Source of the DNA: Myxococcota bacterium | GTDB lineage: Bacteria > Myxococcota_A > SURF-8 > G963663525 | Assembly (NCBI GenBank): GCA_963676915.2 | Contig: CAXXVK010000055.1 | Location: forward strand, 1-58,420 | Length of the DNA: 58,420 nucleotides | Reading direction: 5' to 3' | Part shown: positions 7,374 through 29,050 of the stretch, piece by piece | Position numbering within the stretch: position 1 is the first letter of the stretch | Layout of the letters: each line of letters starts with the position of its first letter | Program-made: the position numbers and the translations under genes | Notes under the pieces: model-generated | What the model saw: only the letters and a program-made list of their open reading frames with translations | Told to the model about the DNA's origin: nothing | Databases searched by the model: none

Positions 7374-8222
7374 ATGAAATTCTCCACATTTTTCAAGATA
7401 TGCCTAGGAATGACCTTGTGGTTTGCGCTGGTGAATAATGCCGTAGCGGAAGAACAGATTTCCCCCAACACGGGTGATTCTTCATTCTGTGATTTGGAGA
7501 CGTGGAAACAAACCTGCGAGGTTGGCTGTCCGGACGGATATGCCCACGATGAAAACGGTTGTCCTATCTGCGAATGTTTTTCGCCACTTTTGGAGCACGA
7601 AGACAGCGTATGTGGTCGTTCGCCCATTTGCCGCGTTCATTGCAAAGAATACGCTAAAGATCAATACGGATGTGCGACGTGCGAATGCGCTGAGGAAAAC
7701 GTTTCGGACCTTTCCTTTGTGGCAGAAAGAGAAGAGATAGAGGCAACATGCAATATCTCTCTGTTCAAGGAGTCTTGTACGTTGGGTTGTCCTTCGGGCT
7801 ATGCACATGATTCTCGCGGTTGCCCGGTGTGCGAGTGTTTTGTAAGTCCCTCTGACTTTCTTTCACGTTGCGGTTCACCAGTCACTTGTGCGACAAAATG
7901 TAAAAACTTTAAGTCGGACGATGAGGGTTGTCCAACGTGCCAATGCTCCGAAGAAGACCTCCTCGTACTGAGGTCTACGAGCATTTCTCAGCCATCACCA
8001 AGAGAGTTAAACGAAATCTCGTGCGATTTCTCAACGTTCAAGGAAACCTGCTCTATTGGGTGCCCAAACGGTTATTCTCATGATGAAAACGGTTGCCCTG
8101 TTTGTCAATGTTTCGAAAAACCTGGAGAAGATCGAAACAGGTGTGAAACCATGGTTTGCGACCGCCGATGTGAGAATTACAGGATTGACGATCATGGATG
8201 CCCAACGTGTGAGTGTAATTGA
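7374..8222 (+). CDS. Secreted Cys-rich protein with six antistasin-like repeats (putative protease inhibitor)
   Basis: Signal peptide ending AVA; six copies of C-x3-C-x(2-3)-[YF]-x2-D-x2-GC-x2-C-x-C. Confidence 0.8.
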   Translation: MKFSTFFKICLGMTLWFALVNNAVAEEQISPNTGDSSFCDLETWKQTCEVGCPDGYAHDENGCPICECFSPLLEHEDSVCGRSPICRVHCKEYAKDQYGCATCECAEENVSDLSFVAEREEIEATCNISLFKESCTLGCPSGYAHDSRGCPVCECFVSPSDFLSRCGSPVTCATKCKNFKSDDEGCPTCQCSEEDLLVLRSTSISQPSPRELNEISCDFSTFKETCSIGCPNGYSHDENGCPVCQCFEKPGEDRNRCETMVCDRRCENYRIDDHGCPTCECN

Positions 8223-12607: not shown

Positions 12608-12692
12608 CGCAACCTCGTTGCCTTTTGAACGATTGTGTCAAGCAAGGAACCGATAAATACACATATCCTACAACATCTATTCTCGGAAATTT

Positions 12693-14210
12693 TTAACGGT
12701 TTAGTTTTATGCGGCTTGGTCCGAAAGAGTACCAACCGTGCTTTTCTTCTTCGTCGAACCAAAGGTTTTGTCGTAATCCGAACGAATAGCCTCCATGAGG
12801 AACTGGAAATGAAGTATAACCAAGCCCATCACAGTATTTTGATAAATAATCTTGACCATCAAAGTTTTGAGTTGTTTTATGAAATTCATAAAAATAGTGT
12901 AAATTAACTTGAATAATGCATACCTGTACCCAACCTATATAGCTTCTTAAGACTGCAACTGCCGATCCTTCAGCAACAAACAATCCTGAATTCAAGTCGA
13001 TGAAAGTGGATACTTCGGCATCGATTTCCGTCGATTCGTTCCAAATACTATTGAGGCATTCTCCTGCTTTCTCTGTATGGTTGTAAATGGTAGTCCAGGG
13101 ATCACCGGGGTAATCGTGTCCTCCCTGCACACTCCTACCAACGACCACCCGGTCCGTTCTTCCCGGAGCAACGGCAAGCTGGCCCTCGTCAGTTGTGCAA
13201 ATCGCTTCGCAGGTTCCTGAATTTTTATCGATAGCCACCACGGTCCGATTCGCACCGGCGAGTAGCCGATCCTCCATCCATCGTAGACCGACGAACGGAA
13301 GATGATCGATTTTCAGGTAGTACGTCGTGCTCGTTGCAACCGGCATCCCCCAATTTACGCCGGTACAGTCGGCGACCGTCCAGACACCGGATGGATCACG
13401 CAACGCCAGACCAAGCGGTCCCTGCACTGCCAACGTGCCGTCTTCATGCACGGCCAAAGCCCAGATCATCCCCTGCCATTCTTCCAGTTCTTCTGCGTCG
13501 TCTCCCGTCGCAACCTCATCTTGAATTGCTTCAGGAACCGTCTCGAAATACCAGCTTCCATTACGCCAGCGACCCACTTTACCCCGTGCAAATCCGGCCC
13601 AAAGCTCTGTTTCGTCTCCGACTCGGCGGCCATCGAGACAGATCACTTTTTCTCCCACCTCTTCGTCACAATGCAGGGATGGAGAAGGTTCTTCGTCGTA
13701 GACCCAGATGCCATTGAGCGCTCCGAACCAAGTGCGCCCCCCTCCATCGCTCCAAACTGCGTTGTTGTTGTTAATGTTCGTACGTCCCATGTCACGTTCG
13801 CAAGGCTCGACCGGCACATCCCAAAGCGGAGTAAAATCGTACTCGATCAACGGTGGCTCGGTATCTTCCTCCACCTCCGCTTCGTCACTCTCCGGTTCCG
13901 TTTCATTCAAATCCGGTTCACCTTCGTCCATTTCGGATTCATCTTCATCCGTGATTTCTTGTGGAATTTCTTCCTCGTCGGGATCGGCAGGAGGGATTGC
14001 CATTTCATCGACATCGAGTAAATCTACATCCGGATCGGAATCACTCGGCGGAAAATCCGAGGTCTCGACAATATCCGAATCTTCTGGAGCGATGATCGAT
14101 GCTACACCGCTTGACTCGCTACACCCACCTGCCAGCATGAAAATAGACAAGGCCAGGAATGCCACAAGATTTACAAAACCGGTGTCACGGAAAACGGATA
14201 GCAACTTCAA
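12693..14210 (-). CDS. Lipoprotein with Asp/Glu-rich linker and probable beta-propeller domain
   Basis: AGGAGG RBS, TTG start, lipobox LAGGC, acidic stalk, GRTWFGALNGIWVYD blade-like motif. Confidence 0.78.
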   Translation of the reverse strand: MKLLSVFRDTGFVNLVAFLALSIFMLAGGCSESSGVASIIAPEDSDIVETSDFPPSDSDPDVDLLDVDEMAIPPADPDEEEIPQEITDEDESEMDEGEPDLNETEPESDEAEVEEDTEPPLIEYDFTPLWDVPVEPCERDMGRTNINNNNAVWSDGGGRTWFGALNGIWVYDEEPSPSLHCDEEVGEKVICLDGRRVGDETELWAGFARGKVGRWRNGSWYFETVPEAIQDEVATGDDAEELEEWQGMIWALAVHEDGTLAVQGPLGLALRDPSGVWTVADCTGVNWGMPVATSTTYYLKIDHLPFVGLRWMEDRLLAGANRTVVAIDKNSGTCEAICTTDEGQLAVAPGRTDRVVVGRSVQGGHDYPGDPWTTIYNHTEKAGECLNSIWNESTEIDAEVSTFIDLNSGLFVAEGSAVAVLRSYIGWVQVCIIQVNLHYFYEFHKTTQNFDGQDYLSKYCDGLGYTSFPVPHGGYSFGLRQNLWFDEEEKHGWYSFGPSRIKLNR

Positions 14211-14367
14211 GATAAATCCTCCTACGATACGAATATTCTTTGGTATTGGACGCTCGAAGTCAACCTATTTGTTGCTCAGCATCTGACCCATTCCCAGCAA
14301 AATTGAAGAAAAGGAGCCTTCACGGGAATCTCTTTGGCGACCAAACCAATTTGGAGGTTTCCGCTGA

Positions 14368-14688
14368 ATGCGCCCTACGTCATTTTCCACTGGATCGAAG
14401 AAAATGGTAAGCCTACCCACTGATGCTATTCAGTTCGTAGAGCCGGCACTCAGAGGTAAAAAACCTGAAGACCTCCTCTTTCCTACCTGGTGTCAAGACA
14501 CCTCCTATCACAAACTCAAAACAGCCTGTAAGCGGCTAAACCTACCCCGGGTCGGCATGCATGACCTCCGTCACATGTGTGAAAGCCGATTTGGACCCGC
14601 TCTTGCTCAGGCTGTCCTTGGCCACAAGGATATATCGACAACGGTCGATATGTACGGTCATCTTACGGCAGCGTATTTGGGCATCTAA
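14368..14688 (+). pseudogene. C-terminal remnant of a tyrosine recombinase/integrase
   Basis: LLFP...HDLRH...LGHKDISTTVDMYGH catalytic motifs are present; the N-terminal domains and the first catalytic Arg are absent. Confidence 0.85.
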
Positions 14689-14911
14689 GATGGAAACGAC
14701 ATTCCTTAAGCAAGAGAAAATGGATAGAGTTAGCAGTCTAAGCTCTGAGCTCATACAGAGTGACGACCTAAAAGTACAGGAATTGGCCATGTTGACGGAA
14801 CTGCTCATCCGGTGCATTTACCGAGGCGGTGAAAACACACTGCGCAAGGAGGTGGAACTCACGGAGTCCTTTATTTACTCTGCACTTTTGTCAAGATTCG
14901 TCAATTTCAAT

Positions 14912-14945
14912 AAAAAAAGCCACTCACGAATGAACGTAAGTGGCT
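14912..14945 (-). terminator. Intrinsic terminator downstream of the displaced tRNA-His 3' fragment
   Basis: Minus strand AGCCACTTACG-TTCATT-CGTGAGTGGCT followed by a T-run. Confidence 0.75.
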
Positions 14946-14949
14946 GCAT

Positions 14950-15002
14950 TTTCTGGTACTGTTGGGAGGACTTGAACCTCCGACCCCCTGATCCACAATC
15001 AG
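14950..15002. repeat. att direct repeat, left copy (tRNA-His 3' fragment)
   Basis: 53 bp identical to 28970-29022: tttctggtactgttgggaggacttgaacctccgaccccctgatccacaatcag. Confidence 0.97.
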
Positions 15003-15109: not shown

Positions 15110-15160
15110 TGGTGACTTATTGGTGACTTTTCTGCTCGACTGATGACTTATAGGTGACTT
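15110..15160 (+). repeat. Putative integrase arm-type sites, left (four TGGTGACTT-like copies)
   Basis: TGGTGACTT at 15110 and 15121, TGATGACTT at 15141, AGGTGACTT at 15152 (pairs at 11-bp spacing). The same pair occurs at the other end of the element. Confidence 0.75.
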
Positions 15161-15211: not shown

Positions 15212-16405
15212 ATGAGACTAACGAAAAAAGCTATCGATTCGGCCAACTACAGCCCGGAAGGTCCATCGGTTCAACGGCTCTGGGACGATACTCTTTCCGG
15301 CTTCGGTGTTCGCCTATACCCGAGTGGACGAAAAAGTTTCATCTATAAATATCGCTACAAAGGCAGGCAACGAACGGCTGTAATCGGACAGTACGGCGCA
15401 ATAACCCTACAGCAAGCCAGAAATGAAGCATTCAAAATGCATACAGCGTTGCTATCTGATTTCGACCCTCTTGCTCAGAAAAACGAGCACAGGCAAATTC
15501 CCACTTTCAAAGCTTTTTGTCATGAATACCTTGAACGCCACGCCAAAACCAAGAAGAAGACTTGGCAACAAGATGAATGGCGCATCAATAAACGCATCAT
15601 TCCGACCTGGGGAACGTGGCGCGTGGATGCAATCTCCCGAAAGGATGTTGCCAATTTGCACCAAAAAATTGGAAAAACAGCACCTTATGAAGCCAATCGC
15701 GTATTGGCTCTTTTACGAAAAATGTTCGATCTTGCTATTCAGTGGGGAGTCATTGACGAAAATCGATCAAATCCTGCCAGCCGTATTCAAAAGTATCGTG
15801 AAATCAAACGTGATCGTTGGGTCACAGAAACCGAACTTCCCAAACTGGCAAAAAAGATCGATCAAGCAGAAAATGTCTTCGTCCGTGCCGCAATCTGGCT
15901 TTATTTGTTGACAGGTCTTCGAAAAATGGAGTTGTTACAAGCAAAATGGGAGGATATAGATTTTGAGCGCGAAGAGTGGCGAATCCCTGATACGAAAGCC
16001 AATCGAACGCACTACGTCCCTCTGTCTGCTTCCGCTATTGCTATCTTAAAAGCCATACCAAGGTTTGAAAATAACCCATACATTTTTCCAGGCCGTCGAA
16101 AAGGTCAACCTTTAGTCAATATCAGCAAACCCTGGAGAGCAATCCGCAAGGCGGCTGGGCTAGATGATGTCCGCTTACACGACTTGCGACGCACGGTTGG
16201 TTCATGGCTTGCGCAAAGTGGAAACAGCATGTTGGTTATCCAGAAAGCCCTCAATCACAGCACCTATAGTGCTACCCAAGTCTATGCACGTATGAGTGAA
16301 AACCCTGTGCGAACTGCCTTCATAGAACATGACAAGCATTTGATGTCGGTTGCCGGAAAGATTGATGCAGGTGAACTTATCTTGTTGCAGGGTGAAAAAG
16401 AGTAG
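15212..16405 (+). CDS. int: Tyrosine integrase with N-terminal arm-binding domain
   Basis: LWDDTLSGFGVRLYPSGRKSF arm domain; TGLRKMEL, DTK, HDLRRT, LNH and TQVYA give an intact catalytic set; adjacent to att. Confidence 0.95.
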   Translation: MRLTKKAIDSANYSPEGPSVQRLWDDTLSGFGVRLYPSGRKSFIYKYRYKGRQRTAVIGQYGAITLQQARNEAFKMHTALLSDFDPLAQKNEHRQIPTFKAFCHEYLERHAKTKKKTWQQDEWRINKRIIPTWGTWRVDAISRKDVANLHQKIGKTAPYEANRVLALLRKMFDLAIQWGVIDENRSNPASRIQKYREIKRDRWVTETELPKLAKKIDQAENVFVRAAIWLYLLTGLRKMELLQAKWEDIDFEREEWRIPDTKANRTHYVPLSASAIAILKAIPRFENNPYIFPGRRKGQPLVNISKPWRAIRKAAGLDDVRLHDLRRTVGSWLAQSGNSMLVIQKALNHSTYSATQVYARMSENPVRTAFIEHDKHLMSVAGKIDAGELILLQGEKE

Positions 16406-16755
16406 ATTCTTAAAATTCCATATCTATTGGGAGCAGACCACTTTGCAGTTGGTCCACTCAACCTGGAGTTACGGCAGTTTTTCTTCACAGAATCTATGAG
16501 TCATTACTTTGCTCCCTTTAGCTGATCTAGTTTTTTCTTTGCAACCCATTCCAAGAACTATCTACTGAATATTGTGATTTCGAGAATAATTATTCCTATC
16601 CTATGCCTTCTGAAGTACCCATACAGTAATCCATACGTAACCAAACCATTTGGAAAATTGGAAAACAATACGATTACTATGCCTTTAAAAGCTTGACAAC
16701 AATAAACCTTATAGTTTATTTTTTGTTTAATCATAGAAAATTTTAGGAGCTTTTC

Positions 16756-19374
16756 ATGAGTGAGTTTCCTGCTTCAATTTTGGAAAAATCTCGTCCATGC
16801 TTAAAATCAAAAAAATGGCTTGAAGATTTTATTGAAGCTATTTATAGTTTGTTAAAAGTGGATTTTGCGGTATATATTGAAATTGATCCAATTAAACGTA
16901 GATTTATATATCGCTGTAGTGGAGATAAAAGTTTCTGTGAAATTCATGCAGGCAAATATAATCAAATTATTCCCGAGATTCCTAATGAAAATTCAGGAAT
17001 CTCGGTTAAAGCGTATTTCGATAAGAAAGATAACAACGAATTTGATTATATTTGCCTGCCTGATGTAGAGGATAAGAAAGATCCCAATCACAAATACTAT
17101 AAAGATCTTGGAATAGGTGTAAAAAGTGAAATAAGTATTCCCATTTCCACCTCGTTTCTTGATACAGACAAGTTCACCATATCTGGTATTTTAGTACTTA
17201 GCAGTAAGCAAAAAAATTATTTCAATAATAAACAACATCCAGAACTTTTCAATAAATTGAAAACGATAATAGCAGCACTCACTTCTTCGATTTCTTGGGA
17301 GCGATTGTCAATTATTGAGGAAACTTGGAAGAAGATTTATAAAGATGTGTCTTTTTCCAATAAACATAAGAAGTTTTCTGATTTTTACAAAAATATTTTT
17401 CAAATTCTTAAAGCATTAACTCCAAACCAATTAAAATATATTGGAATATGGTTCAAGTATTCCGATGAAAAGGGTCATTACTTAATCAAGCAAAACTACG
17501 AAGACTACATGGTAGAATTGGAACGTAAGGAAGAGCACAAAATTTGTTCCGTTTATTCATTGATAACACCAACGACTGATCACGAATATAGAGACTTTTT
17601 AGAAGAGCTTGAACGATCCAAAGAGAAAGATGGGAAATACTGTTTTAAAAAAAGATTAAAAACTCTTAGATCAGCAAAATTGGATGATAAGCAAGCTTTT
17701 ATTAGCAACTATAGGCTATTAGAAAATGACATATTACTTCTTACTCCTATCCTCGATCCAATGAATCAAGACCTTCGGGGCATTATTACTTGGGTAGTCA
17801 GCAGAGATTTTGATCCTTTTATGCTATCTGATAATAATATGAAACTATTCTCCAGTCTTCTTTTCAATTCAATAGAACAGATCAAAAAAAATAAAAAACG
17901 AGAATTGAAAAAAAAGCTCTATATGGTGACAAAGAATATGTTAAACAATCAAGATTTTTTTGGAGAAAAAGTCTTACAAATCGCAAAAGATGTATTGAAC
18001 ATTGAAGGTTGTTCAATATTTTTATATGATGACTTATACAAGAGACTTAACCTTAAATATACTACCGGTATATACAGAGTGGGTACTTGTAAGTGCGCTA
18101 AATTGAAGGCGATTCCATCTAACGAATATCAGAAAATTTCCTATACAAAAGATCAGGACTTCAGCTCAAAAACCTGGGAGGCTTTTGATTCAAAAAAAAT
18201 CGTTATTTGCTATTCTTCTAATGAGTGCATTAAACATCACCCCAAAACAACAGAAGTCGCAAAAATAGAAAACTGTCGATCCTTCATGGCTGCACTAATT
18301 GAAGCTCCAGATGGTGAGAAATTAGGAGTAATCAGGTGCATTAATAAGAAAAGTCCATTTGGCGATAAAGCCAAGGACAAAGAATACTTTTCCGATGTAG
18401 ACAAAGACATGTTAGAACATTTTTCTGAAATGCTTGGAATGAGATTTCAGCTAATAGCAACTTACAAAAAAAGTATCAGCAATGAACGAACTCTTTATCA
18501 TGAGATATCAACACAATCTCTAGCGGCTTACAACCGAATAGAGTGGATATTGAAAAATACAAAACAAAGCGATTATATTCGCGAAAAATTAATAGATGTT
18601 TTTACGTGGAATTACAATATCAATTTTTATACCAGAGTTACAAATGTTTTCACTTTAAACGCCAAAGATTTAGAAAAGGAAATTGTTCCATTATTCGGGA
18701 GTATAATAATAAAATGGGTAAATGATCTAACTAGAGAAGCAAGAAAAAGAGCCATCAGTTTCAATTTAGGTGAAATACATGATCTGCCAAGAGTTTTCGT
18801 TAATTCGAATCTCATGGAAATGGCTATTTACAATCTTTTAAGAAATGCTGTGCAATATGCAATCGATGGCTCCACAGTCGAAATAGAAGGGGTGAGAATA
18901 AATAATTTTGCCGTATTAAAAATTACAAACTATGGTATACCAATTTATGAAGAAGAAAAAGAGAAAATTTTTCAAATTGATTATCGAACAAAAGAAGCAA
19001 AGATCGTCAGAAGTGAAGGAACTGGTTTAGGACTTCCCTTAGTTAACCAAATCGTAGATGAGCTACATGGAGGGATGATAGATGTAGAAAGCGTGGAAGT
19101 AGCAAAAAAAAATACAGTCCTTTTGCAGGAGATTTATAGAAGGTTTGCGCATGATTCTGAAAAATTACAGGAGTTAGTTGACAAAGAGGATATAGAAATG
19201 TTAAATATATTAAATGTGAGTAGGGGGCGAGATGTCCCAAGAATGACAGAAGCATTTGCTGATTGGTTTGTAAAAAACAAAGAATATATAATTGAAAACA
19301 AGGATGACTTTGATTATTATTTAAATAAACCAACATACAAAACAACCTTTAGTATGCATATACCGGTTAGATAA
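16756..19374 (+). CDS. Cytoplasmic multi-GAF histidine kinase
   Basis: GAF signatures (KSEISIPI...GILVLSSKQKNYF; RSFMAALI...LGVIRCINK...YFSDVD); H-box LYHEI; N-box NLLRNAVQYA; ITNYGIPI; GTGLGL. AT-rich; no TM segment evident. Confidence 0.85.
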   Translation: MSEFPASILEKSRPCLKSKKWLEDFIEAIYSLLKVDFAVYIEIDPIKRRFIYRCSGDKSFCEIHAGKYNQIIPEIPNENSGISVKAYFDKKDNNEFDYICLPDVEDKKDPNHKYYKDLGIGVKSEISIPISTSFLDTDKFTISGILVLSSKQKNYFNNKQHPELFNKLKTIIAALTSSISWERLSIIEETWKKIYKDVSFSNKHKKFSDFYKNIFQILKALTPNQLKYIGIWFKYSDEKGHYLIKQNYEDYMVELERKEEHKICSVYSLITPTTDHEYRDFLEELERSKEKDGKYCFKKRLKTLRSAKLDDKQAFISNYRLLENDILLLTPILDPMNQDLRGIITWVVSRDFDPFMLSDNNMKLFSSLLFNSIEQIKKNKKRELKKKLYMVTKNMLNNQDFFGEKVLQIAKDVLNIEGCSIFLYDDLYKRLNLKYTTGIYRVGTCKCAKLKAIPSNEYQKISYTKDQDFSSKTWEAFDSKKIVICYSSNECIKHHPKTTEVAKIENCRSFMAALIEAPDGEKLGVIRCINKKSPFGDKAKDKEYFSDVDKDMLEHFSEMLGMRFQLIATYKKSISNERTLYHEISTQSLAAYNRIEWILKNTKQSDYIREKLIDVFTWNYNINFYTRVTNVFTLNAKDLEKEIVPLFGSIIIKWVNDLTREARKRAISFNLGEIHDLPRVFVNSNLMEMAIYNLLRNAVQYAIDGSTVEIEGVRINNFAVLKITNYGIPIYEEEKEKIFQIDYRTKEAKIVRSEGTGLGLPLVNQIVDELHGGMIDVESVEVAKKNTVLLQEIYRRFAHDSEKLQELVDKEDIEMLNILNVSRGRDVPRMTEAFADWFVKNKEYIIENKDDFDYYLNKPTYKTTFSMHIPVR

Positions 19375-19406
19375 TAGCTCAGTCAAAAGCATATTAGGAT
19401 TTTAAC

Positions 19407-19835
19407 ATGAGTAAAAACATTCTATTTATTGAAGATAAGCTCGTTGATCTTTCAGACTTTGTTGAAGCTTTAGAAAAATATGGAAAAGTTTACAAAGCAA
19501 TTGGTGTACGACAGGCAAGAAATTATCTTAGTAAACATCCAAAGGAAATAAATTTCGATTTTATCATTCTGGATATTATGATGCCTCCAGAAGGTTTGTA
19601 TGAGCTAGATCAGAGTGAAGATGGAAAAGCAACTGGAATTCTTTTTTATCATGACTATATAGATATTAAAGATATTCCTACAATAGCATTCACAGCACAT
19701 GATAACGACATATTATTGGATTCTTTTTATAGAAATAATTCCAACGTTATAGGAATTATAAAAAAAAGAGCGATTTTATATCATGAGTTTAGTAAAAAAA
19801 TAATGGAAATTATTTCTCAGCATGAATGCAAATAA
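19407..19835 (+). CDS. Stand-alone response-regulator receiver domain
   Basis: ILFIED, IILDIMMP (phospho-Asp), AFTA and IIKK motifs; no output domain. Confidence 0.88.
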   Translation: MSKNILFIEDKLVDLSDFVEALEKYGKVYKAIGVRQARNYLSKHPKEINFDFIILDIMMPPEGLYELDQSEDGKATGILFYHDYIDIKDIPTIAFTAHDNDILLDSFYRNNSNVIGIIKKRAILYHEFSKKIMEIISQHECK

Positions 19836-19844
19836 CATTAAATT

Positions 19845-20651
19845 ATGAAAGTTTTATACTATAAATTTTTTTGTAATGTTATTATTTTTATTATTATGGC
19901 TACCCTGTTGTCATTAGGAGTCTCTTTTGTTTTGGATATTGAATCCGTAACTAACTCTGAAATAAGCGCTATTAAGAAAGAAATTAATGAGATAAAGTCA
20001 ATTAATCCTAGATTCTTTCATAAGAGAACTAACCCAATACGGAAAAATTCTTTTCATGATGATAAAAACATTTCATCAAGTTATTCTATTGAAAAATTCG
20101 GAATATTTTTATTTACATTCCTTGTTGCACTGATGTCAATGTTCGGCCTTGCTAATGTATTTAAGATTTTTGAATATAAAGAAAAAATTTTAAATAACAT
20201 TAAAGAGTTTGATGAAAAGCACAGAGCAGATGAACTTAAAGGCTTGCTATCTTATATAACATCAAATAAAAAAGATATTGAAGACATGCAAAATTCCACA
20301 ATACAACTTGCTAGAAACCTTAAAAAAACTAAGGATAGTATGGAAAACCTTTTTCAGTCATCTAACCTATTTTCTACTCGAGTAAGATATGCTGCAATTC
20401 AATCAATGATTCGAGAATCAGACGAATTTCGGTTAGCTTCATATCAGGACTACTTTGAAAATATTCTTGAAACAGAAGAGTTGGTGCTAAAAGAAATGCA
20501 AGAGATTGTCAAAAGAAACCAAGCAACTACTGTATCTCATGAGTCTGTTAGCGATATTGACTTGCAAAATCAAAACCTGCTAGTGAATTCAATTAAAGAA
20601 GCTATAGAAAAGGCAAAGTCATCAAGTAGAAATATTAATAGGCATCATTAA
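19845..20651 (+). CDS. Hypothetical membrane protein (two TM segments plus C-terminal coiled coil)
   Basis: Hydrophobic stretches at about aa 10-31 and 85-106; helical, heptad-like C-terminus; 9-bp gap after the receiver gene. Confidence 0.72.
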   Translation: MKVLYYKFFCNVIIFIIMATLLSLGVSFVLDIESVTNSEISAIKKEINEIKSINPRFFHKRTNPIRKNSFHDDKNISSSYSIEKFGIFLFTFLVALMSMFGLANVFKIFEYKEKILNNIKEFDEKHRADELKGLLSYITSNKKDIEDMQNSTIQLARNLKKTKDSMENLFQSSNLFSTRVRYAAIQSMIRESDEFRLASYQDYFENILETEELVLKEMQEIVKRNQATTVSHESVSDIDLQNQNLLVNSIKEAIEKAKSSSRNINRHH

Positions 20652-20672: not shown

Positions 20673-22493
20673 CTATTTCTTCCACTCATTCACAATCTTA
20701 TCAAATGATACTTCTTTCCACTTTTCCTTCCATGTTTCCAGGTATTTAATATCGTTTGAAGAAGGTTGCTTGTTATCATCACACCTATCAATTTTAACCA
20801 ATGAAGGCATAATCACAGATTCTCCAAGCAATAGCCCCTCTCCAGATTGCAAAGCTGGTAAATTTTCAATTAAGTTACCAAGTGCATCAGGAAGTAATCT
20901 TTTAACATAGCTTTGATCACTTGGATTGGTAAGTCTCATCGCAATGAAAGTATTACACTGAGAAAATATTGTTTCAGAGATTTCTGATGGTCTTTGACTT
21001 ACAATTCCCAGGGTAACACCGTATTTTCTACCCTCTTTGGCGATTCTTTCTATAGCGAATCTTGAAGCATTATACTTTGCCAAATCTGTTCTTGGTACGT
21101 ATTTATGCGCCTCTTCATATACCAGCAACAGAGGGGTATCTAGACTAGATTCGTTGTTGAGGAACTTTTTATAAAAATAGCCAAAATCAAATAGTATTCT
21201 AGAAATTAAAGAAACAGTGATACTAAGAACCTCAAACGGAATGCCGCTCAAATCAATTACCGTCACATTGGATTTCTTTCCTTCTTGGTATCCAATAAAT
21301 TGCTTGAGAGTTTCCTCAAATGAAATATTCTCAGATTTTTCACCTAGCAAAAATTCTAATCGACTGTCGTTGATTTTATTTTCGAGTCTCGATATAAACT
21401 TATCGAGGGTACCATCTGCATATTCTCCCTTTTTGATACTTTGACTTTTAGGAGAGTGAAACTCTTGAATTCCCGAATAATACTTTTCAAGTCTTTCTGT
21501 CTTTGATAGCTCAATACCACTATTTTCATTTGTTTTCCCATCTTTCAATAACTCATATAAAGAATCTTCTTTTATCATGTATCTATTTGCACTGCTTTTC
21601 GCATTCTTCGTTTCAATGGAATAGTTTTTTAAAGCATTGAGTATTTGTTTTAAGTTAAACTTCAATGGAGAATCGAAGTATATATTTGATTCAGGAGAAT
21701 TATTTGTTTGCCGTTTATTTTCAATAACCAATTCCCTTAACACAGATGCTTGGTTGTAATTATTACGATCCCCAGATTCCAGAAACAGTTCTTCTAGTTC
21801 TTCGCTATTCATCAACCAATAGGGCAATATCAGGTTGCTAATATTAATTTGATTTGCACCTGGGAATGCAGAATTGTATTCATTATGAATATCAAAGATA
21901 ACTACGTGAGAATTGTTTAATACATAATTCCCATTTTTTAGAGAAATTGCATTCTGTAAAATTTTTGCAATTGTGTGAGATTTACCCGAACCACTTGAAC
22001 CTACAATTGCGAAATGTTTATTAAAAAATTTATTTCCATTGACAGGAACCTCAATTTTGCAGTCCTGCGACAATCTTGCAAAAAGAAATTTCTCCTTTGG
22101 CTCAAACCCATTTTCATATATCAGCTTAATATCTTCATGACTTGCGGGTTTTACTTCTGTTGGAGGTATCGCCAACGCATCACCTCCACGCATAAACTTA
22201 CCACTCTCAATCGAACCTAATGGCGTGGCTTCCAAAACATAGGCTCTATATGTTTTCTTTTTGCCGCTTTCAGGATTCGTCCGCTCTTTTAATTCAATTT
22301 TGTAGCTTTCAATGACAGCAATGAGCTTGCATCCCATATTGTCAGAAACTTCAAGATAGGAACCAATTTTAAGATCTTCAAGAGCTTTATCTGTTGTCTC
22401 TTTAAACGCGGTAAGGTTTTCAATTTCAATAATTATTTTATTAGGATATACAGCGGTAACTACTGCAAGCACATTCTTCTTTTGCTTTTTCAT
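20673..22493 (-). CDS. herA: HerA-like (DUF87) ATPase of the DUF4297-HerA anti-phage system
   Basis: N-terminal HAS barrel; FFNKHFAIVGSSGSGKS Walker A; LLVYEEAH Walker B; IAKEGRKYG; SQRPSE. Confidence 0.92.
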   Translation of the reverse strand: MKKQKKNVLAVVTAVYPNKIIIEIENLTAFKETTDKALEDLKIGSYLEVSDNMGCKLIAVIESYKIELKERTNPESGKKKTYRAYVLEATPLGSIESGKFMRGGDALAIPPTEVKPASHEDIKLIYENGFEPKEKFLFARLSQDCKIEVPVNGNKFFNKHFAIVGSSGSGKSHTIAKILQNAISLKNGNYVLNNSHVVIFDIHNEYNSAFPGANQINISNLILPYWLMNSEELEELFLESGDRNNYNQASVLRELVIENKRQTNNSPESNIYFDSPLKFNLKQILNALKNYSIETKNAKSSANRYMIKEDSLYELLKDGKTNENSGIELSKTERLEKYYSGIQEFHSPKSQSIKKGEYADGTLDKFISRLENKINDSRLEFLLGEKSENISFEETLKQFIGYQEGKKSNVTVIDLSGIPFEVLSITVSLISRILFDFGYFYKKFLNNESSLDTPLLLVYEEAHKYVPRTDLAKYNASRFAIERIAKEGRKYGVTLGIVSQRPSEISETIFSQCNTFIAMRLTNPSDQSYVKRLLPDALGNLIENLPALQSGEGLLLGESVIMPSLVKIDRCDDNKQPSSNDIKYLETWKEKWKEVSFDKIVNEWKK

Positions 22494-22511: not shown

Positions 22512-23705
22512 TCATGCAAGTATTTGACTTATGTCAGCAATATTGTTGATATTGATATTAACATGCTTGATATCTTCTGTAACTTCAATATGGGTCGAAA
22601 AATAGAACTGATATAATTTTACAGGTGCTTTGTGATCATCATCTTGTAAAACGGCAAGAAGTTTTTCTTCATTGTTGATAAACTTAACAGATACATTATC
22701 GTCAATTGTTGACGCAGATATCAATGATTCTACATCGAAACGTGCATCTTTAAAATCATACCCATCTTTAATAATAATATTATCTCTTACAAGTGACCAC
22801 TTAAGTTTCGATAATTCTTCAGTTTTACAGTTGTGGATATATATATAAGGTGCCCTCGATTTGAGTACGTCTCTCTGCTTTTTATAGAATTTGTTTCTTA
22901 TGGCAAGTATTTCATTCTTAATTTCAGAAGGACTTTCATTTCCTTTCAAGTGGATGATGAATATCCTTGCAAAGTTGTCTATATTACGAAACTTAAAATT
23001 CTTTTCTTTTACTAACTTGAAATACTTTCTCTCACCTTGATACATTCTTAGAGATGTATTAAATATTAGCTTTTGGCCATTTTTAAGAATATCTATTATA
23101 GCCCTTCTCGTGCAGGTTCGTCTTTCTTTTTCACCAGGAGAGTTATTTACAACTAGCTTAGTGAAATACTCACAAATGTTTGAATAATAGAAAATGGCTT
23201 CCTCATCTGAATTACCTATAAATTCAAGGCATTTAAGCTGGTGAATAACTTGTTGAAATTGACACTGAAATTCCGAAGAAAAAACAAGCTGGAATTTTTT
23301 AACGAATGCTGATTTTTCCTTATGTGAAAAATCATTCTTTCTATTGCCTAAAACGTTGTTTAAGTTTTCCATTGTGATCATATTATTCTTGTCAACAAAA
23401 TTCTCATTCTTGTTTAGGTCCTTGAAATAGGCATACAGAATATATATTTTTGTGGGATCAACATTGAAATCTTTAATAAGCTGAATGACTGGTTCTTTAA
23501 TTACATTGGGTGTAAACTTTTTTGTTTCTCTATATTTTACCTGTATCACGAAACTGTCTGAATCAATGTCTTGTATTTGTTCTATATTTATTGGATCATC
23601 TTCATTGGAAGCATTAAGGAGTTCTAGTATTGCTTTGTCTATTTGATATGCAAATCCTTTAATTGCGTAATAGCCACCATCTTGGAGTTTTTGTTTTAAT
23701 GTCAT
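22512..23705 (-). CDS. DUF4297-like (Cap4-type PD-(D/E)xK nuclease) anti-phage protein
   Basis: N-terminal YYAIKGFAYQ...IEQIQDID...IQVKY nuclease motif, directly upstream of herA (18-bp gap). Start taken at ATG 23705. Confidence 0.8.
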   Translation of the reverse strand: MTLKQKLQDGGYYAIKGFAYQIDKAILELLNASNEDDPINIEQIQDIDSDSFVIQVKYRETKKFTPNVIKEPVIQLIKDFNVDPTKIYILYAYFKDLNKNENFVDKNNMITMENLNNVLGNRKNDFSHKEKSAFVKKFQLVFSSEFQCQFQQVIHQLKCLEFIGNSDEEAIFYYSNICEYFTKLVVNNSPGEKERRTCTRRAIIDILKNGQKLIFNTSLRMYQGERKYFKLVKEKNFKFRNIDNFARIFIIHLKGNESPSEIKNEILAIRNKFYKKQRDVLKSRAPYIYIHNCKTEELSKLKWSLVRDNIIIKDGYDFKDARFDVESLISASTIDDNVSVKFINNEEKLLAVLQDDDHKAPVKLYQFYFSTHIEVTEDIKHVNININNIADISQILA

Positions 23706-24006
23706 TATTAACCCTATATAAATGTTTCTTTGAAGAAACAAGAAAGAGAAGAAACATCGTTGGAGGACAAGAGAGATAAGAATAACTGATTACAATTGAA
23801 ATGTAAAAGAAAATATGTATTTCTTAAAGATTAGTAAGGGACTACAACTTGTACAAGTTTCGTAGTTTCTGATACGTTGGTGTACATTGCAATGAATATA
23901 ATCAAAAATCTGAAACTGATTTCTTCTGATATAATCCCCTGAGCTTACTGGAAATTTGAAAACGCCAATAGTTTTGGGAAATTGAAAAGGCAAAAAGGAA
24001 AGTCCA

Positions 24007-24990
24007 ATGGCTCCAAATTCAGAAATCGACTTCACAATCTGGGGAAATATTTATCTTCATGTAAATGAGGTTTTAGATAAAGTTAAAAAGAATAAGGATA
24101 GTGATCATTTTAAAAATTTACTCCTAGGAACAGAAATAAAAAAAAGCGAACTAAGGATGATTCACAATCTATTTATACGTCTAAAGCTGCTTTTCCAAGA
24201 TTACTATCTTTGTAAACGGAATCATGATCAACCCCATTTAAAAATATCTTCCAGAAAAGCTGACTTGAAAAAGATCATGAATCTTAGTGAAGAACTATTC
24301 ATTCTTTTACGTAGTAGTCACTGTGTTCCGCAAGATTTACACAGGGAGGCAGTCGATGAACTGGCAATGGGTATAAATGGTGCATTAACAATGTCCAGAG
24401 AATTTTCTGGAATGTTTAGAGCAAATGGTGTCACAAAGAAAAGTAACTTTCTGAATATGTTGCTTTATATAAATCGTCTTTCCCAAAAAATACTTAACGA
24501 TGGCTTAAGAGAAAATAAAGCGATTTATAAAACTGGCAAAAACGAAAATGGGAAAAAAGTTAAAATTCTCATTGGTCATGAAGAAGTAAGGACCCATAAA
24601 GGTGGACGCCCAACAAAATTTGCCGAAGCGCACCTTATAAATGAAGCAACATGGGTTGTTTCTTATTATTGGGCAAGAAAACACTGTGTCGAGAAGGATT
24701 TTAAAAAGCTTCAATCAGCTATTAATGATTTTCCGAGGAAAAGAAATATTTTCATTCGGGAGTGTTTCAAGATTCTCGAAATTCCCTTCGAAAAAAACAG
24801 CACTCTAAATAAACGAATTCAAAGGACACTTGCTCAGGACGCCAATGATAGAAAAGGTTCGCAAATAGATAAATTTCCTGATGAAGCCAGCATTGAAGCA
24901 CATCTGGAACGAGCCAGAAACAAAGCCAATTTCTTTTTACCGTCATTGAGTCTATGGGGGAGAGGGACTAAAGCTGAAGATACACCATAG
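24007..24990 (+). CDS. Hypothetical protein of the island
   Basis: 327-aa ORF with an AAGGA RBS; basic and helical; no family recognised. Confidence 0.65.
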   Translation: MAPNSEIDFTIWGNIYLHVNEVLDKVKKNKDSDHFKNLLLGTEIKKSELRMIHNLFIRLKLLFQDYYLCKRNHDQPHLKISSRKADLKKIMNLSEELFILLRSSHCVPQDLHREAVDELAMGINGALTMSREFSGMFRANGVTKKSNFLNMLLYINRLSQKILNDGLRENKAIYKTGKNENGKKVKILIGHEEVRTHKGGRPTKFAEAHLINEATWVVSYYWARKHCVEKDFKKLQSAINDFPRKRNIFIRECFKILEIPFEKNSTLNKRIQRTLAQDANDRKGSQIDKFPDEASIEAHLERARNKANFFLPSLSLWGRGTKAEDTP

Positions 24991-25284
24991 TTGAATTTCA
25001 TTTAGTATCATCTGATTTGGGGCAATAATACCCACCCTGTGCGAAAAAGGGTTGGGATATTTTGAATAGTTTATTTTAGGGTTATTTCCCACCTACTCAA
25101 CGTTGCCTATAAAACCGTAAAACAATCATGATATCAATTACATATAGATACACATCAGCAAAAAGAAGGATAAATCTCGTTAAAAGTTATTTCCCATCCC
25201 TGAACTGACAAAGTTTTGTATTTGGCTAATGTTGCTCCTGTTTGGTTTTGTTTATTTCTATTTCACCATTCCAAAGGAGCCATT

Positions 25285-25509
25285 ATGCAAAAAGCACTAT
25301 TAAATCAGAAACAAGCTGCCGATTATATCGGGGTGAAGACTGGAACGATGGAAATTTGGCGCTATCGCGGTGGTGGTCCTCCCTTCATTCGAATTTCGAG
25401 ACGCTGTATTCGCTATCGACCCTGCGAAATTGATGAATGGTTAAATAAAAGGCGTGCTGCAAACACCACAGAAATCACCGAAGCAGAGAAAGAGAATGAT
25501 TATGAATAA
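25285..25509 (+). CDS. AlpA/HTH_17 excisionase-like regulator
   Basis: LLNQKQAADYIGVKTGTMEIWRYRGGGPPFIRISRRCIRY...IDEWL; AAGGAG RBS before ATG 25285. Confidence 0.9.
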   Translation: MQKALLNQKQAADYIGVKTGTMEIWRYRGGGPPFIRISRRCIRYRPCEIDEWLNKRRAANTTEITEAEKENDYE

Positions 25510-26785
25510 CTTCTCCCCGGAATTTGCTCACTGTAAATTAAAATGGTCAATCATCCCAACTCAAGGAAATAAGCGTCCGCAATTCTCATGGAAAGAATAT
25601 CAAACCCGAAAACCTTCAGATGAAGAATTTGACTCGTGGATGGGTCGCAATCCTCCTTGCTGGGCTGTTATTACGGGTGCGATTAGCGGAATCGTAGTTC
25701 TTGACTTCGATGGGCCGCAAGGATGTGACCTTGTACATAAATGGAACGTTAAACCACACGTTCAGACACCTTCCGGGGGATATCACCTTTACTTGATTCA
25801 TCCCGGTTTTTCGATTCAAACACTGAATTCCAAAAGCAAGCGCGCCCTTGGAGTAAAGTATCCTGGTCTCGATATCCGTGGAGATGGTGGGTATGCCTTG
25901 TTTTTTGGGAAAACAGAAAAAGGCAAATACCAATGGTTACGAGAGCCTTTTCCTGATCCCATCGAAGTGATTCCTTATGAAGTTGCGCGGTTTTTAAACC
26001 TGCTTTCGGAGAAATCTCAAGAAAAAAAGCAAACACCTACAAGTATTGAGTATTCAAGTCGTTGTCAAATGAATCCTGGAAAGTGGCTCCAATGGGGTTT
26101 GAATCGAGTTCGATCATTGGGAGGAAGAAACAATGCCTGTAAAACCCTTGCGGATCAATTGAGAGACAACGGCATTCCCTATACTGAGGCAAAAAGTATC
26201 ATCCTTGGGTATCAAGCATCCGTTCCGCCTACAAATGCGAGGGGAGAATGGGAAGAGTTTTCCGAGAGAGAAGCCTTGGTCTGTTTGGATTCCTCCTACA
26301 ATTCACCTCCTCGCTTTCCATGGAACCTTAAATATAGGGAAAAGGAGAGCAAGGAAAAATCAGCGGGACAATTGGATACTACCGATTGTGAAAAAAAAGA
26401 CTGTTGTGAGTCACTTCCTCAAGCCAAGCCGATCATCCTCCATAATTGGCAACTGCGCTTCGCTTTAGAAAGAATCTGGCTCCAAATCAAGAAACAAAAC
26501 GATGCTGTTATTCAATCTGGGCACGTCATGAAAAATTTGGAACCGTTGTTTTTATCAGGCAATCATAAACTTACTCGTCTTGTACGACTCGAAAAACCGG
26601 ATGCCAACAACAGTATTGAAATTCAAATTATGAGTCGTGAACAGGTTTATGGATTACTTGCAAGGATGTTCGATTGGAAAACAGAGGGTAAAGATGGAGC
26701 CTTGTCCAATCGGGATCCCAAAAAAAAACGCTGTAGATTTGATCTATGGCGATCCCACTTCTGCTGTTTTACCTGGCGAGTCTAA
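25502..26785 (+). CDS. Bifunctional primase-polymerase (Prim-Pol plus PriCT-like), N-terminal part of a split replication gene
   Basis: NKRP..SWKEYQ, TGAISGIVVLDFDG, QTPSGGYHLY, LDIRGDGGY and GGRNN motifs. The frame breaks at the A9 run 26720-26728. Confidence 0.88.
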   Translation: MNNFSPEFAHCKLKWSIIPTQGNKRPQFSWKEYQTRKPSDEEFDSWMGRNPPCWAVITGAISGIVVLDFDGPQGCDLVHKWNVKPHVQTPSGGYHLYLIHPGFSIQTLNSKSKRALGVKYPGLDIRGDGGYALFFGKTEKGKYQWLREPFPDPIEVIPYEVARFLNLLSEKSQEKKQTPTSIEYSSRCQMNPGKWLQWGLNRVRSLGGRNNACKTLADQLRDNGIPYTEAKSIILGYQASVPPTNARGEWEEFSEREALVCLDSSYNSPPRFPWNLKYREKESKEKSAGQLDTTDCEKKDCCESLPQAKPIILHNWQLRFALERIWLQIKKQNDAVIQSGHVMKNLEPLFLSGNHKLTRLVRLEKPDANNSIEIQIMSREQVYGLLARMFDWKTEGKDGALSNRDPKKKRCRFDLWRSHFCCFTWRV

Positions 26786-28007
26786 CAACCCCGAACTCCC
26801 TCTTCCGTATATTCACAGTATTGCCGATACCCCCCAATATGGCAAAGGTGGTGCTTTGATAACCCGAGTTGGCTACTATAAGGAAGACCGTCTATGGTAT
26901 GAACCAAGCACAGCTTTGAAAACCATGCCAGGTATCCCCAAAGAACCAACTCAAATTGACGTGAAAAAAGCCCGATCTCTGCTTTGTAATGATTTGCTCG
27001 GAGATTTTCCTTTTGTGACGGAAGCTGACAAGGCGACCATGATTGCTGCGTTCATTCTTCCTTTCGTGATTCGAAGGTTTGATGGGCAAACCCCGATACA
27101 TTTAATTGAAGCTCCTGTACAGGGTAGCGGAAAAACGATACTGGCAAGTCTGGTTTCAATTGTAGCAACGGGAAAAGCTTCCGTGCCAATTATTTTTAGC
27201 CAAAGTGAAGAAGAAAACCATAAGGCATTGGCGGCAGAACTATCAAAAAGAAAGCCGATTATTACCATCGATAACGTCGATACTTCCTACCGCCCTTTGA
27301 AAAGCCCCACATTATCCTCCATTACAACTGAAAGCTATTTTTCCAGCCGTATTTTGGGAACATCGGAAATGATGGAGATTCCCAACCAAGCGGTATGGAT
27401 CATGACCGGGAATAATGTGAAAATCGCTCAAGATTTGATCCGGCGTTTCATTCGTTGCAGAATTGATCCCGGTGAAGAAAATCCATGGATGAGAAATCCA
27501 AAGCAATTCAGACATCCCGATATCAAACAGTGGACTAAGGAAAATCGTTCCCAAATCGTTCATGCCATACTAACCCTCTGTGAAGCATGGCGACAAAGTG
27601 AAAAAGACCTTGAAGTAAAAAGTCTTGGCTCCTTTGAGGCATGGAGTGAAACTATTGGGGGGATTCTTGAAGTTGCCGAAATACCTGGATTCCTCGATAA
27701 CCTTGAAGATTTTTACGGAATGAGCAACGAAGAGTCTGAATCTTTCGCTCCCTTGATTCAAGCATGGCAAGAAGAGTTCGGAAATAGTCCTGTAAAAGCA
27801 AAACACCTACAAGAGCTTTGTGAATCCAAGGAACTCATGCTCGAAACACGCGGTCACGGCACTGATCATTCACAGAGAACCAGATTAGGACGAGCTTTAA
27901 AATCTGCTAACGGACGAGTCTTTGGAAATCGTAAAATCATGGCGCAGATGGATAAACGCAGCAAAACCCTCGAATATTGCCTGACGCCAATCCAAACGGA
28001 CGAATAA
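26637..28007 (+). CDS. P-loop helicase/ATPase-like C-terminal part of the split replication gene
   Basis: DFPF, APVQGSGKT Walker A, ITIDNV, RILG, MTGNN and DLIRR motifs. In frame with the upstream ORF if one A is removed from the A9 run. Confidence 0.82.
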   Translation: MNRFMDYLQGCSIGKQRVKMEPCPIGIPKKNAVDLIYGDPTSAVLPGESNNPELPLPYIHSIADTPQYGKGGALITRVGYYKEDRLWYEPSTALKTMPGIPKEPTQIDVKKARSLLCNDLLGDFPFVTEADKATMIAAFILPFVIRRFDGQTPIHLIEAPVQGSGKTILASLVSIVATGKASVPIIFSQSEEENHKALAAELSKRKPIITIDNVDTSYRPLKSPTLSSITTESYFSSRILGTSEMMEIPNQAVWIMTGNNVKIAQDLIRRFIRCRIDPGEENPWMRNPKQFRHPDIKQWTKENRSQIVHAILTLCEAWRQSEKDLEVKSLGSFEAWSETIGGILEVAEIPGFLDNLEDFYGMSNEESESFAPLIQAWQEEFGNSPVKAKHLQELCESKELMLETRGHGTDHSQRTRLGRALKSANGRVFGNRKIMAQMDKRSKTLEYCLTPIQTDE

Positions 28008-28907: not shown

Positions 28908-28927
28908 TGGTGACTTATTGGTGACTT
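28908..28927 (+). repeat. Putative integrase arm-type sites, right
   Basis: TGGTGACTTATTGGTGACTT, identical to 15110-15129. Confidence 0.75.
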
Positions 28928-28928
28928 G

Positions 28929-28965
28929 AAAAAGAAAAAGGACTTACGAAAACTCGTAAGTCCTT
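28929..28965 (-). terminator. Intrinsic terminator of tRNA-His (supplied by the island)
   Basis: Perfect 12-bp stem AAGGACTTACGA/TCGTAAGTCCTT with a 4-nt loop, followed by a T-tract on the minus strand. Confidence 0.85.
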
Positions 28966-28969
28966 GAAA

Positions 28970-29022
28970 TTTCTGGTACTGTTGGGAGGACTTGAACCTC
29001 CGACCCCCTGATCCACAATCAG
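28970..29022. repeat. att direct repeat, right copy (within the intact tRNA-His)
   Basis: Identical to 14950-15002. Confidence 0.97.
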
Positions 29023-29050
29023 GTGCTCTAACCAACTGAGCTACAACAGC
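28974..29050 (-). tRNA. tRNA-His (GTG)
   Basis: GCTGTTG TA GCTC AGTTGGTTA GAGC A CCTGA TTGTGGA TCAGG GGGTC GGAGG TTCAAGT CCTCC CAACAGT A CCA: full cloverleaf, 77 nt, encoded CCA. Confidence 0.97.

Follow-up and report, generated by a model that had tools for sequence, protein, structure and literature searches.

A rare, mobile three-gene cassette of a soluble histidine kinase, a stand-alone receiver and a two-transmembrane protein in a Myxococcota genome, and its possible role in defence

Background

What kind of output could a two-component system have when its operon encodes a soluble sensor histidine kinase, a receiver without an output domain and a transmembrane (TM) protein, and could such a set of genes serve in defence against phages? 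This question is raised by a locus at positions 16,756 to 20,651 of contig CAXXVK010000055.1 (assembly GCA_963676915.2, Myxococcota bacterium), which we analysed over its whole length of 58,420 nucleotides (nt), hereafter the window. The initial annotation of the window, made from its letters alone, had noticed three AT-rich genes here and had speculated that they form a phosphorelay which senses an intracellular infection signal and gates a membrane effector. Judged from its sequence, the locus is a genuine signalling cassette of three intact genes, very rare and horizontally mobile, in which the gene order is conserved. By analogy, it is quite possibly, although at somewhat less than an even chance, a Detocs-like defensive or conflict system, whose effector would damage the membrane and thereby abort infection. 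The evidence for defence that comes from its context is thin and mixed.

Composition of the cassette

The cassette consists of three plus-strand open reading frames (ORFs) that encode, in this order, the kinase, the receiver and the two-TM protein (Table 1), separated by gaps of 32 and 9 nt. The ATG of the kinase gene is preceded by AGGAG, and no terminator-like hairpin was predicted on the plus strand within 16756-20651. The three genes have a G+C content of 28-32% and a G+C content at third codon positions (GC3) of 0.20-0.28, compared with 55% and a GC3 of 62% in a flanking host gene. The integrase gene ends 350 nt upstream of the cassette, and the gene for the ATPase HerA, belonging to a DUF4297-HerA pair, converges with the third gene across a gap of 21 nt. 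All three ORFs are intact, and because homologues of all three lie in this same arrangement on a metagenome contig (L016, see the next section), we regard them as genuine genes rather than chance ORFs. Among sequencing runs, one was listed as a match, probably from the source sample itself, and no RNA run. The exact coordinates hence bear out what the initial annotation had said of the tight spacing, base composition and placement of these genes, and the same is true of its description of the three products as a soluble kinase, a receiver with an intact Asp and no output domain, and a protein with two TM segments, as detailed below.

The kinase contains no hydrophobic segment (the maximum 19-residue Kyte-Doolittle mean is 1.34). 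Its H-box, His582 followed by Glu, was aligned to that of SrrB (6paj), and the His is kept in the relative P0014 from L016; a phospho-acceptor His in the helix of the dimerisation and histidine phosphotransfer (DHp) domain, which marks a classical histidine kinase, is thus found in His582. Both the N and the G2 box are present, and an insert of about 80 residues between the G2-box strand and the last strand of the catalytic domain is kept in the sole relative. We found no full-length homologues of the kinase with words from its first 500 residues or from residues 543-872, only generic kinase cores, and a tblastn search against plasmids likewise returned kinase cores only.

The sensory part of the kinase had been described as two clear GAF domains and a degenerate one. 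Residues 405-562 score 19.7 bits with the Pfam GAF profile when the whole protein is searched and 22.9 bits as a segment (cut-off 22.4), i.e. one marginal GAF domain. Residues 1-400 have no Pfam profile match and no PDB sequence match, and their AlphaFold2 model, made without an alignment, has a predicted local distance difference test (pLDDT) score of 32.9. All 30 of their 30 nearest named clusters in the ESM Atlas are GAF families (score 0.97), a signal that cannot separate one domain from two in this region, and neither the mutual alignment of the three putative GAF segments nor separate PDB sequence searches with them gave anything usable. Residues 1-400 are probably GAF-like, then, on language-model features only, so that the GAF character of the sensory region stands while the count of three domains is not demonstrated.

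The receiver has the residues expected of a REC domain, namely, an acidic pocket (E9/D10), the phospho-Asp D56, T96 and K120, of which D56, T96 and K120 are invariant in all four sequences of the receiver family. It scores 17.9 bits with Pfam Response_reg, under the cut-off of 30.2 bits, which a relative in another genome of the phylum (G007, see the next section) passes at 38.7 bits. No further domain and no DNA-binding or enzymatic output was found in it with Pfam. An insert with the pattern D-x-MMP...G-x-x-TG after the phospho-Asp strand marks a distinctive subfamily and is common to few relatives: P0015 on L016, a fragment (P0030), and the more distant P0031 from a Logan assembly.

The third protein has two hydrophobic segments, seen as 19-residue windows that start at residues 3-17 and 84-92, and is otherwise predicted to be helical, its AlphaFold2 model being all-helical with a low-confidence pLDDT of 47.5. 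Its best-conserved motif, MF[GS]LANVFKIFE, lies at the end of the second TM segment (TM2) and is shared with its relative P0013. It has no family match in Pfam, PADLOC, NCBIfam or PHROGs, and its best score against the ESM Atlas (0.87) is to unnamed clusters, which we take as a lead only. We also considered whether it might be a phosphotransfer protein of the Hpt or Spo0B type; this was ruled out, as the columns shared with P0013 contain no invariant His.

Relatives and conservation of gene order

An exhaustive phmmer search with the TM protein over 1.84 billion representative proteins returned one relative, P0013 (E-value 6.8e-4), which is 26% identical to it by BLASTP and 29-30% by phmmer and MAFFT. 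The gene for P0013 lies on the 2.5-kb metagenome contig L016, whose genes, arranged as in the cassette, encode part of a kinase (its C-terminal 336 residues), a bare receiver and P0013 itself. The L016 kinase (P0014) shares 36% identity with the cassette kinase across 331 residues, a stretch that takes in the H-box, an N-Y-G-I-P box and the insert of the catalytic domain, and the L016 receiver (P0015) is 34% identical to the cassette receiver. With 39-46% G+C, L016 has a background unlike that of the cassette. Co-occurrence of the homologues as a triplet, on which the initial annotation had made its proposal depend, is therefore what we see in the TM protein's sole relative, i.e. at two loci.

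L016 further contains a 43-nt direct repeat (1066-1108 and 2332-2374), which covers the beginning of the receiver gene, its ribosome-binding site included; the second copy stands directly after the TM gene and runs into a short unrelated ORF. The repeat may have been left behind when the cassette was duplicated or exchanged, or it may be an assembly artefact.

When 401 genomes of the phylum were searched with a profile built from four receivers, a single hit stood out (1.6e-14), in G007, which belongs to the same taxonomic order, and a weaker one (2.4e-10) was obtained in a second genome, G118; the other hits were mostly to the N-terminal half, with scores like those of generic receivers. The triplet in G007 (L062, C1 6766-10722) encodes a soluble PAS-GAF kinase of 935 amino acids (aa), a 132-aa receiver with the insert and a 240-aa two-TM protein with a helical tail, whose gene starts 12 nt after the receiver gene. 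This block has 38-42% G+C between flanks of 52-58%. The G007 TM protein shows no similarity to that of the cassette (BLASTP E-value 3.1; hhalign probability 0.1%) and was found in one of the 401 genomes, G007 itself, and the G007 kinase has a canonical G1 box, D-Y-G-V-G. In G118 (L063, C4 4303-11319, minus strand), the genes encode a 907-aa kinase, a receiver of the subfamily, a TPR-S protein and a Ser/Thr kinase with TPR-S repeats. A large kinase is thus encoded directly upstream of the receiver at all four loci of the subfamily that have context (the cassette, L016, G007 and G118), and a two-TM helical protein directly downstream at three of the four, drawn from at least two unrelated families; taken together, the third genes behind receivers of this subfamily encode two unrelated two-TM helical proteins and one TPR-S protein. 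Since the TM proteins of G007 and the cassette are unrelated in sequence, the pattern is that of a third gene that would act as a swappable effector.

Elsewhere the cassette is exceedingly scarce. The TM profile matched one of the 401 genomes of the phylum, its own, and two pattern scans, derived from the TM and the kinase alignments, found no match in a collection of 185,579 species, each represented by a single genome. There was no match in IMG/VR to the kinase, the receiver, P0031 or the TM protein; tblastn likewise found nothing in 50,697 phage records with the TM protein and the receiver, or in 72,556 plasmid records with the TM protein.

A possible phosphorelay and its relation to known systems

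The three proteins can be arranged into a signalling chain as follows. The GAF-like N-terminal region of the cytoplasmic kinase would sense an intracellular cue, upon which the kinase would autophosphorylate at His582 and pass the phosphate to Asp56 of the receiver, both residues being present in the sequences. The phosphorylated receiver would then bind the cytoplasmic helical tail of the TM protein and switch its membrane activity, and the outcome would be a changed integrity of the membrane. We let the receiver act on the TM protein because it has no output domain of its own and the TM protein is the only other product of the operon. Operon logic, the conservation of the triplet and the different third genes that follow related receivers all point to this step.

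The closest parallel to such a chain is Detocs (DtcA/DtcB/DtcC). As described in bioRxiv 10.1101/2023.01.24.525353, Detocs comprises a kinase, a bare receiver (DtcB) that serves as a buffer, and a receiver-effector fusion (DtcC); its effectors are modular, including transmembrane types, and it shows that a kinase, receivers and a cell-killing effector can together form a defence system. Detocs is the only published two-component defence system found by us in which the chain ends directly in a cell-damaging effector. The cassette resembles it in that one operon of three genes encodes a cytoplasmic kinase, a receiver that stands alone and, in place of a DNA-binding output, a putative effector, and in a His-to-Asp phosphotransfer signal, which for the cassette is read from the residues only. 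The gene of the cassette receiver also occupies the position of DtcB, between kinase and effector; this comparison is by position, no Detocs-named profile having hit the receiver. On the other hand, Detocs has a TPR sensor, whereas the cassette kinase is GAF-like and has no TPR match (Pfam, E-value ≤0.1; segments, E-value ≤10); it has two receivers and the cassette one, so that the bare receiver of the cassette would be a messenger rather than a buffer; and the effector of DtcC is fused to a receiver, whereas the TM protein of the cassette has no Response_reg match (E-value ≤0.1). By this analogy, the cassette would work in the manner of Detocs, yet it falls outside that system, having neither a TPR sensor nor a receiver domain in its third protein.

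The initial annotation had recognised no named defence system in the locus. This holds in so far as no PADLOC model matches beyond generic domain hits, but the logic of the cassette is that of Detocs, which had not been named there. In the literature that we searched, outside which most subscription journals lay, no defence cassette made of a GAF kinase, a bare receiver and a TM protein is described. Membership in the PADLOC candidate systems PDC-M43 and PDC-M60 was considered and rejected for want of a full-length specific match, and neither 61 genomes nor 14 control genomes yielded a hit to the PDC-M60C family.

Two other groups of systems offer a partial likeness. Single-domain receivers, as in the CheA-CheY-FliM and DivJ/PleC-DivK-DivL pathways, act by phosphorylation-dependent binding to a protein target. 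The cassette shares with these pathways a receiver without an output domain, but here the target would be a two-TM helical protein without a known family, the kinase is a soluble protein with a multi-GAF-like architecture, and all three genes travel as cargo on a mobile element. The TM effectors of CBASS, Pycsar and Thoeris combine a small TM module with a cytoplasmic sensing part and are switched on by an infection signal. Those systems use nucleotide second messengers that are recognised through known domains, whereas the signal proposed for the cassette is a phosphorylated protein, and the tail of its TM protein matches no family.

Further from the cassette than Detocs is Ambrosia, a defence cluster which (bioRxiv 10.1101/2025.09.30.679545) contains a HATPase sensor kinase and a receiver with a winged helix-turn-helix domain, for which transcriptional control of a module resembling restriction-modification is proposed. 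A HATPase sensor kinase and a REC protein in one cluster are what the two have in common; Ambrosia differs in the winged helix-turn-helix domain on its receiver and in having no membrane protein and no bare receiver.

Defence or another function

The idea of a phosphorelay that gates a membrane effector in defence is supported by the order of the triplet, by the analogue at a third locus (G007) and by the position of the cassette as mobile cargo beside DUF4297-HerA; it is weakened by the housekeeping setting of G007. The company kept by related elements adds something to it. Homologues of the primase-helicase of the island that carries the cassette (next section) occur in 32 of 301 genomes of the phylum, and we scanned with PADLOC 106 ORFs from the 20-kb neighbourhoods of seven of these homologues, which are neighbourhoods rather than delimited islands. 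Three of the seven contained a strongly matching ORF other than a RecD-like helicase, namely, a DRT-type reverse transcriptase together with QatC-like pieces, SoFic, and a PD-T4-6-type kinase. The RecD-like helicase adjoins the primase in two of the seven; the neighbourhoods L044, L045 and L046 have no PADLOC match except PrimPol on the primase itself, and L042 has only the RecD-like helicase and a weaker match to a Ppl/mad3-type ATPase. These neighbourhoods are at most suggestive of a slot for defence genes.

A number of findings weigh against a defensive relay. The islands around the related primases are undelimited, and the PD-T4-6-type kinase among the three positives is perhaps a generic Ser/Thr kinase. 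The binding of the receiver to the TM protein is a matter of inference, and the TM family comprises two loci only, one of which, L016, comes without surroundings. No PADLOC model matches the three cassette proteins specifically: the PDC-M43B hit of the kinase covers its HATPase part only (profile positions 226-320 of 347) and is shared by three of four unrelated control kinases (2.6e-11 to 4.8e-8), the hits of the receiver to PDC-M60B/C are weak (2.4e-3, 1.6e-4), and the L016 receiver hits no model. The G007 triplet stands between GH31/MFS and formiminotransferase genes, i.e. genes of sugar and amino-acid metabolism, and the ORFs scanned around it have no PADLOC match beyond a weak one of the receiver.

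These last two observations, the lack of a defence model specific to any cassette protein and the metabolic setting of the G007 analogue, would suit an accessory two-component system that is carried as cargo and tunes some property of the membrane or envelope, unrelated to phage defence. We regard this as a substantial possibility, if a doubtful one. The TM protein would then be either the output or an input partner that reports the state of the membrane, and the receiver a switch like CheY or DivK, or a phosphate sink. Single-domain receivers and accessory membrane proteins of kinases are common; moreover, the extracytoplasmic loop and the TM helices could sense the membrane, and the best-conserved stretch of the protein is the TM2/juxtamembrane motif. 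What speaks against such an accessory role is the extreme rarity and patchiness of the cassette (one of the 401 genomes by the TM profile, none in the scans of 185,579 species), its strongly foreign composition, its place among the cargo of a mobile element, adjacent to DUF4297-HerA, and the change of third gene from one related receiver to another, all of which fit genes of conflict better than genes of physiology.

The catalytic domain of the kinase raises a further difficulty. In both family members (P0001 and P0014), the G1 box reads N-Y-G-I-P instead of D-x-G-x-G, whereas its Asp is present in 19 of 19 comparator kinase cores, left from 21 comparator proteins after two had been dropped for lack of a G2 pattern. 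At G1, therefore, the catalytic and ATP-binding domain departs from that of a classical histidine kinase. In other GHKL ATPases, ATP is no longer bound once the corresponding Asp is changed to Asn. With Asn in the position of the adenine-binding Asp, ordinary ATP-dependent autophosphorylation of the kinase is not assured, which also counts against the defensive relay. Together with the missing Pfam HisKA match, this could mean that the protein is a pseudo-kinase or a phosphatase-biased scaffold, and that the cassette signals by binding or is decaying. We consider this improbable: His582, the N box, the G2 box and D56/T96/K120 are kept between two members that are 34-36% identical, which argues for selection on phosphochemistry, and all three ORFs are intact.

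The least probable alternative is that the cassette, which directly follows the integrase gene within the element, serves that element by exclusion, by addiction or stabilisation, or by sensing the state of the host to time excision, as no integrase or mobility gene turned up in the ORFs scanned around the G007 analogue, the cassette lacks a DNA-binding product through which excision genes could be controlled, the TM protein has no phage, plasmid or IMG/VR match and the receiver none in phages or IMG/VR, and the element's replication gene looks frameshifted.

Returning to the Detocs-like defensive system, one may go a step further and propose a 'split Detocs' class, in which the receivers of this subfamily would be diffusible messengers between large GAF/PAS kinases and swappable, separately encoded effectors, and in which the Asn of the G1 box would reflect either an altered nucleotide requirement (e.g. 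GTP) or a basal activity deliberately silenced, so that a lethal effector would stay inactive until infection. We think this more specific scheme unlikely. If the cassette does defend, immunity by phosphorelay would reach further than Detocs and be more modular, with a phosphorylated bare receiver as a protein messenger and a separately encoded family of membrane effectors that is essentially without relatives; its kinase would be a natural variant without the adenine-binding Asp, with a bearing on how a lethal relay is silenced. If it does not, the locus would still be a clean example of a mobile signalling cassette, with an output protein that has no recognised fold.

The mobile element and its surroundings

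The cassette is part of a 14-kb integrative element in a tRNA-His gene, flanked by direct repeats at both ends (Table 1). The repeat D1 (97 nt; 14906-15002 and 28926-29022), the final 53 nt of which are identical in the two copies, corresponds to the 3' part of tRNA-His 28974-29050. The cargo lies between the integrase gene and the excisionase/primase genes of the element, and has a GC3 of 0.20-0.30 (the cassette, HerA, DUF4297 and the ORF at 24007-24990), compared with 0.34-0.44 for the backbone genes and 0.62 for the host gene. DNA of the five nearest genomes has no match inside the island; their matches are confined to the right host flank, the stretch with an integrase fragment left of attL, and tRNA- or att-like pieces.

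Table 1. Coordinates of the cassette and of the other features of the integrative element in the window
Feature	Position	Strand	Evidence or remark
attL, left end of the island	14950..15002	.	Identical over 53 nt to the 3' part of tRNA-His; repeat D1
Tyrosine integrase	15212..16405	+	Pfam Phage_integrase 4.9e-29, Arm-DNA-bind_3 1.7e-16; phrog_1 integrase 2.3e-65
Promoter-like site TTGACA-18-TATTTT	16693..16722	+	Consensus scan 10/12; consensus match only
Soluble sensor histidine kinase, 872 aa	16756..19374	+	HATPase_c 8e-15; GAF-like 1-400, marginal GAF 405-562, His582
Stand-alone receiver, 142 aa	19407..19835	+	D56, T96, K120; insert D-x-MMP...G-x-x-TG
Two-TM protein, 268 aa	19845..20651	+	Two hydrophobic segments, helical C-terminal tail
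HerA ATPase of the DUF4297-HerA pair	20673..22493	-	PADLOC HerA 5.2e-251 (residues 4-606, full length); Pfam DUF87 3.6e-32
DUF4297 nuclease, HerA partner	22512..23741	-	PADLOC DUF4297 3.4e-59 (residues 26-408)
327-aa ORF, low-GC cargo block	24007..24990	+	GC3 0.29; divergent from DUF4297
HTH_17 excisionase/regulator, island backbone	25216..25509	+	Pfam HTH_17 1.7e-7; phrog_66 excisionase 7.4e-10
Prim-Pol and helicase replication gene, two overlapping ORFs	25454..28007	+	Pfam Prim-Pol 3.5e-18; phrog_10537, phrog_19930
tRNA-His (28974-29050) including attR (28970-29022)	28970..29050	-	ARAGORN, Rfam; repeat D1

Next to the cassette, the genes of HerA and DUF4297 are 18 nt apart on the same strand, and by their adjacency and full length they make a complete DUF4297-HerA pair; the DUF4297 ORF scores 230 bits (4.2e-68) with NCBIfam DUF4297_antiphage, under the cut-off of 300 bits. 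DUF4297-HerA is an experimentally characterised two-gene system that defends by abortive infection (PMC11291478). We ruled out that the cassette is a part of this system, given its convergent orientation and the description of DUF4297-HerA as made of two genes. The 327-aa ORF beyond the pair has no match in Pfam, PADLOC, NCBIfam or PHROGs, and may be further cargo. The two ORFs of the replication gene (25454-26785 and 26637-28007) overlap by 149 nt, and their relatives are single frames of about 800-1000 aa; the split is probably a frameshift, by which the element may have lost its own replication or mobility.

Near the ends of the island, a 20-nt repeat, TGGTGACTTATTGGTGACTT, occurs in two copies by attL (15110-15160, the second copy at 90%) and one by attR (28908-28927); these repeats are candidate arm-type binding sites of the integrase. 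Just outside attL lies a C-terminal integrase fragment (14368-14688), and left of it there are two large minus-strand ORFs, 10145-12607 (820 aa) and 12693-14210 (505 aa), without a Pfam or PADLOC match. The region 10145-14688 may be what is left of an older element that had used this tRNA-His site. Among the host genes of the window are one for an Lcl_C-domain protein (5190-6767) and one for a protein with antistasin-family repeats (7374-8222), which are better known from animals.

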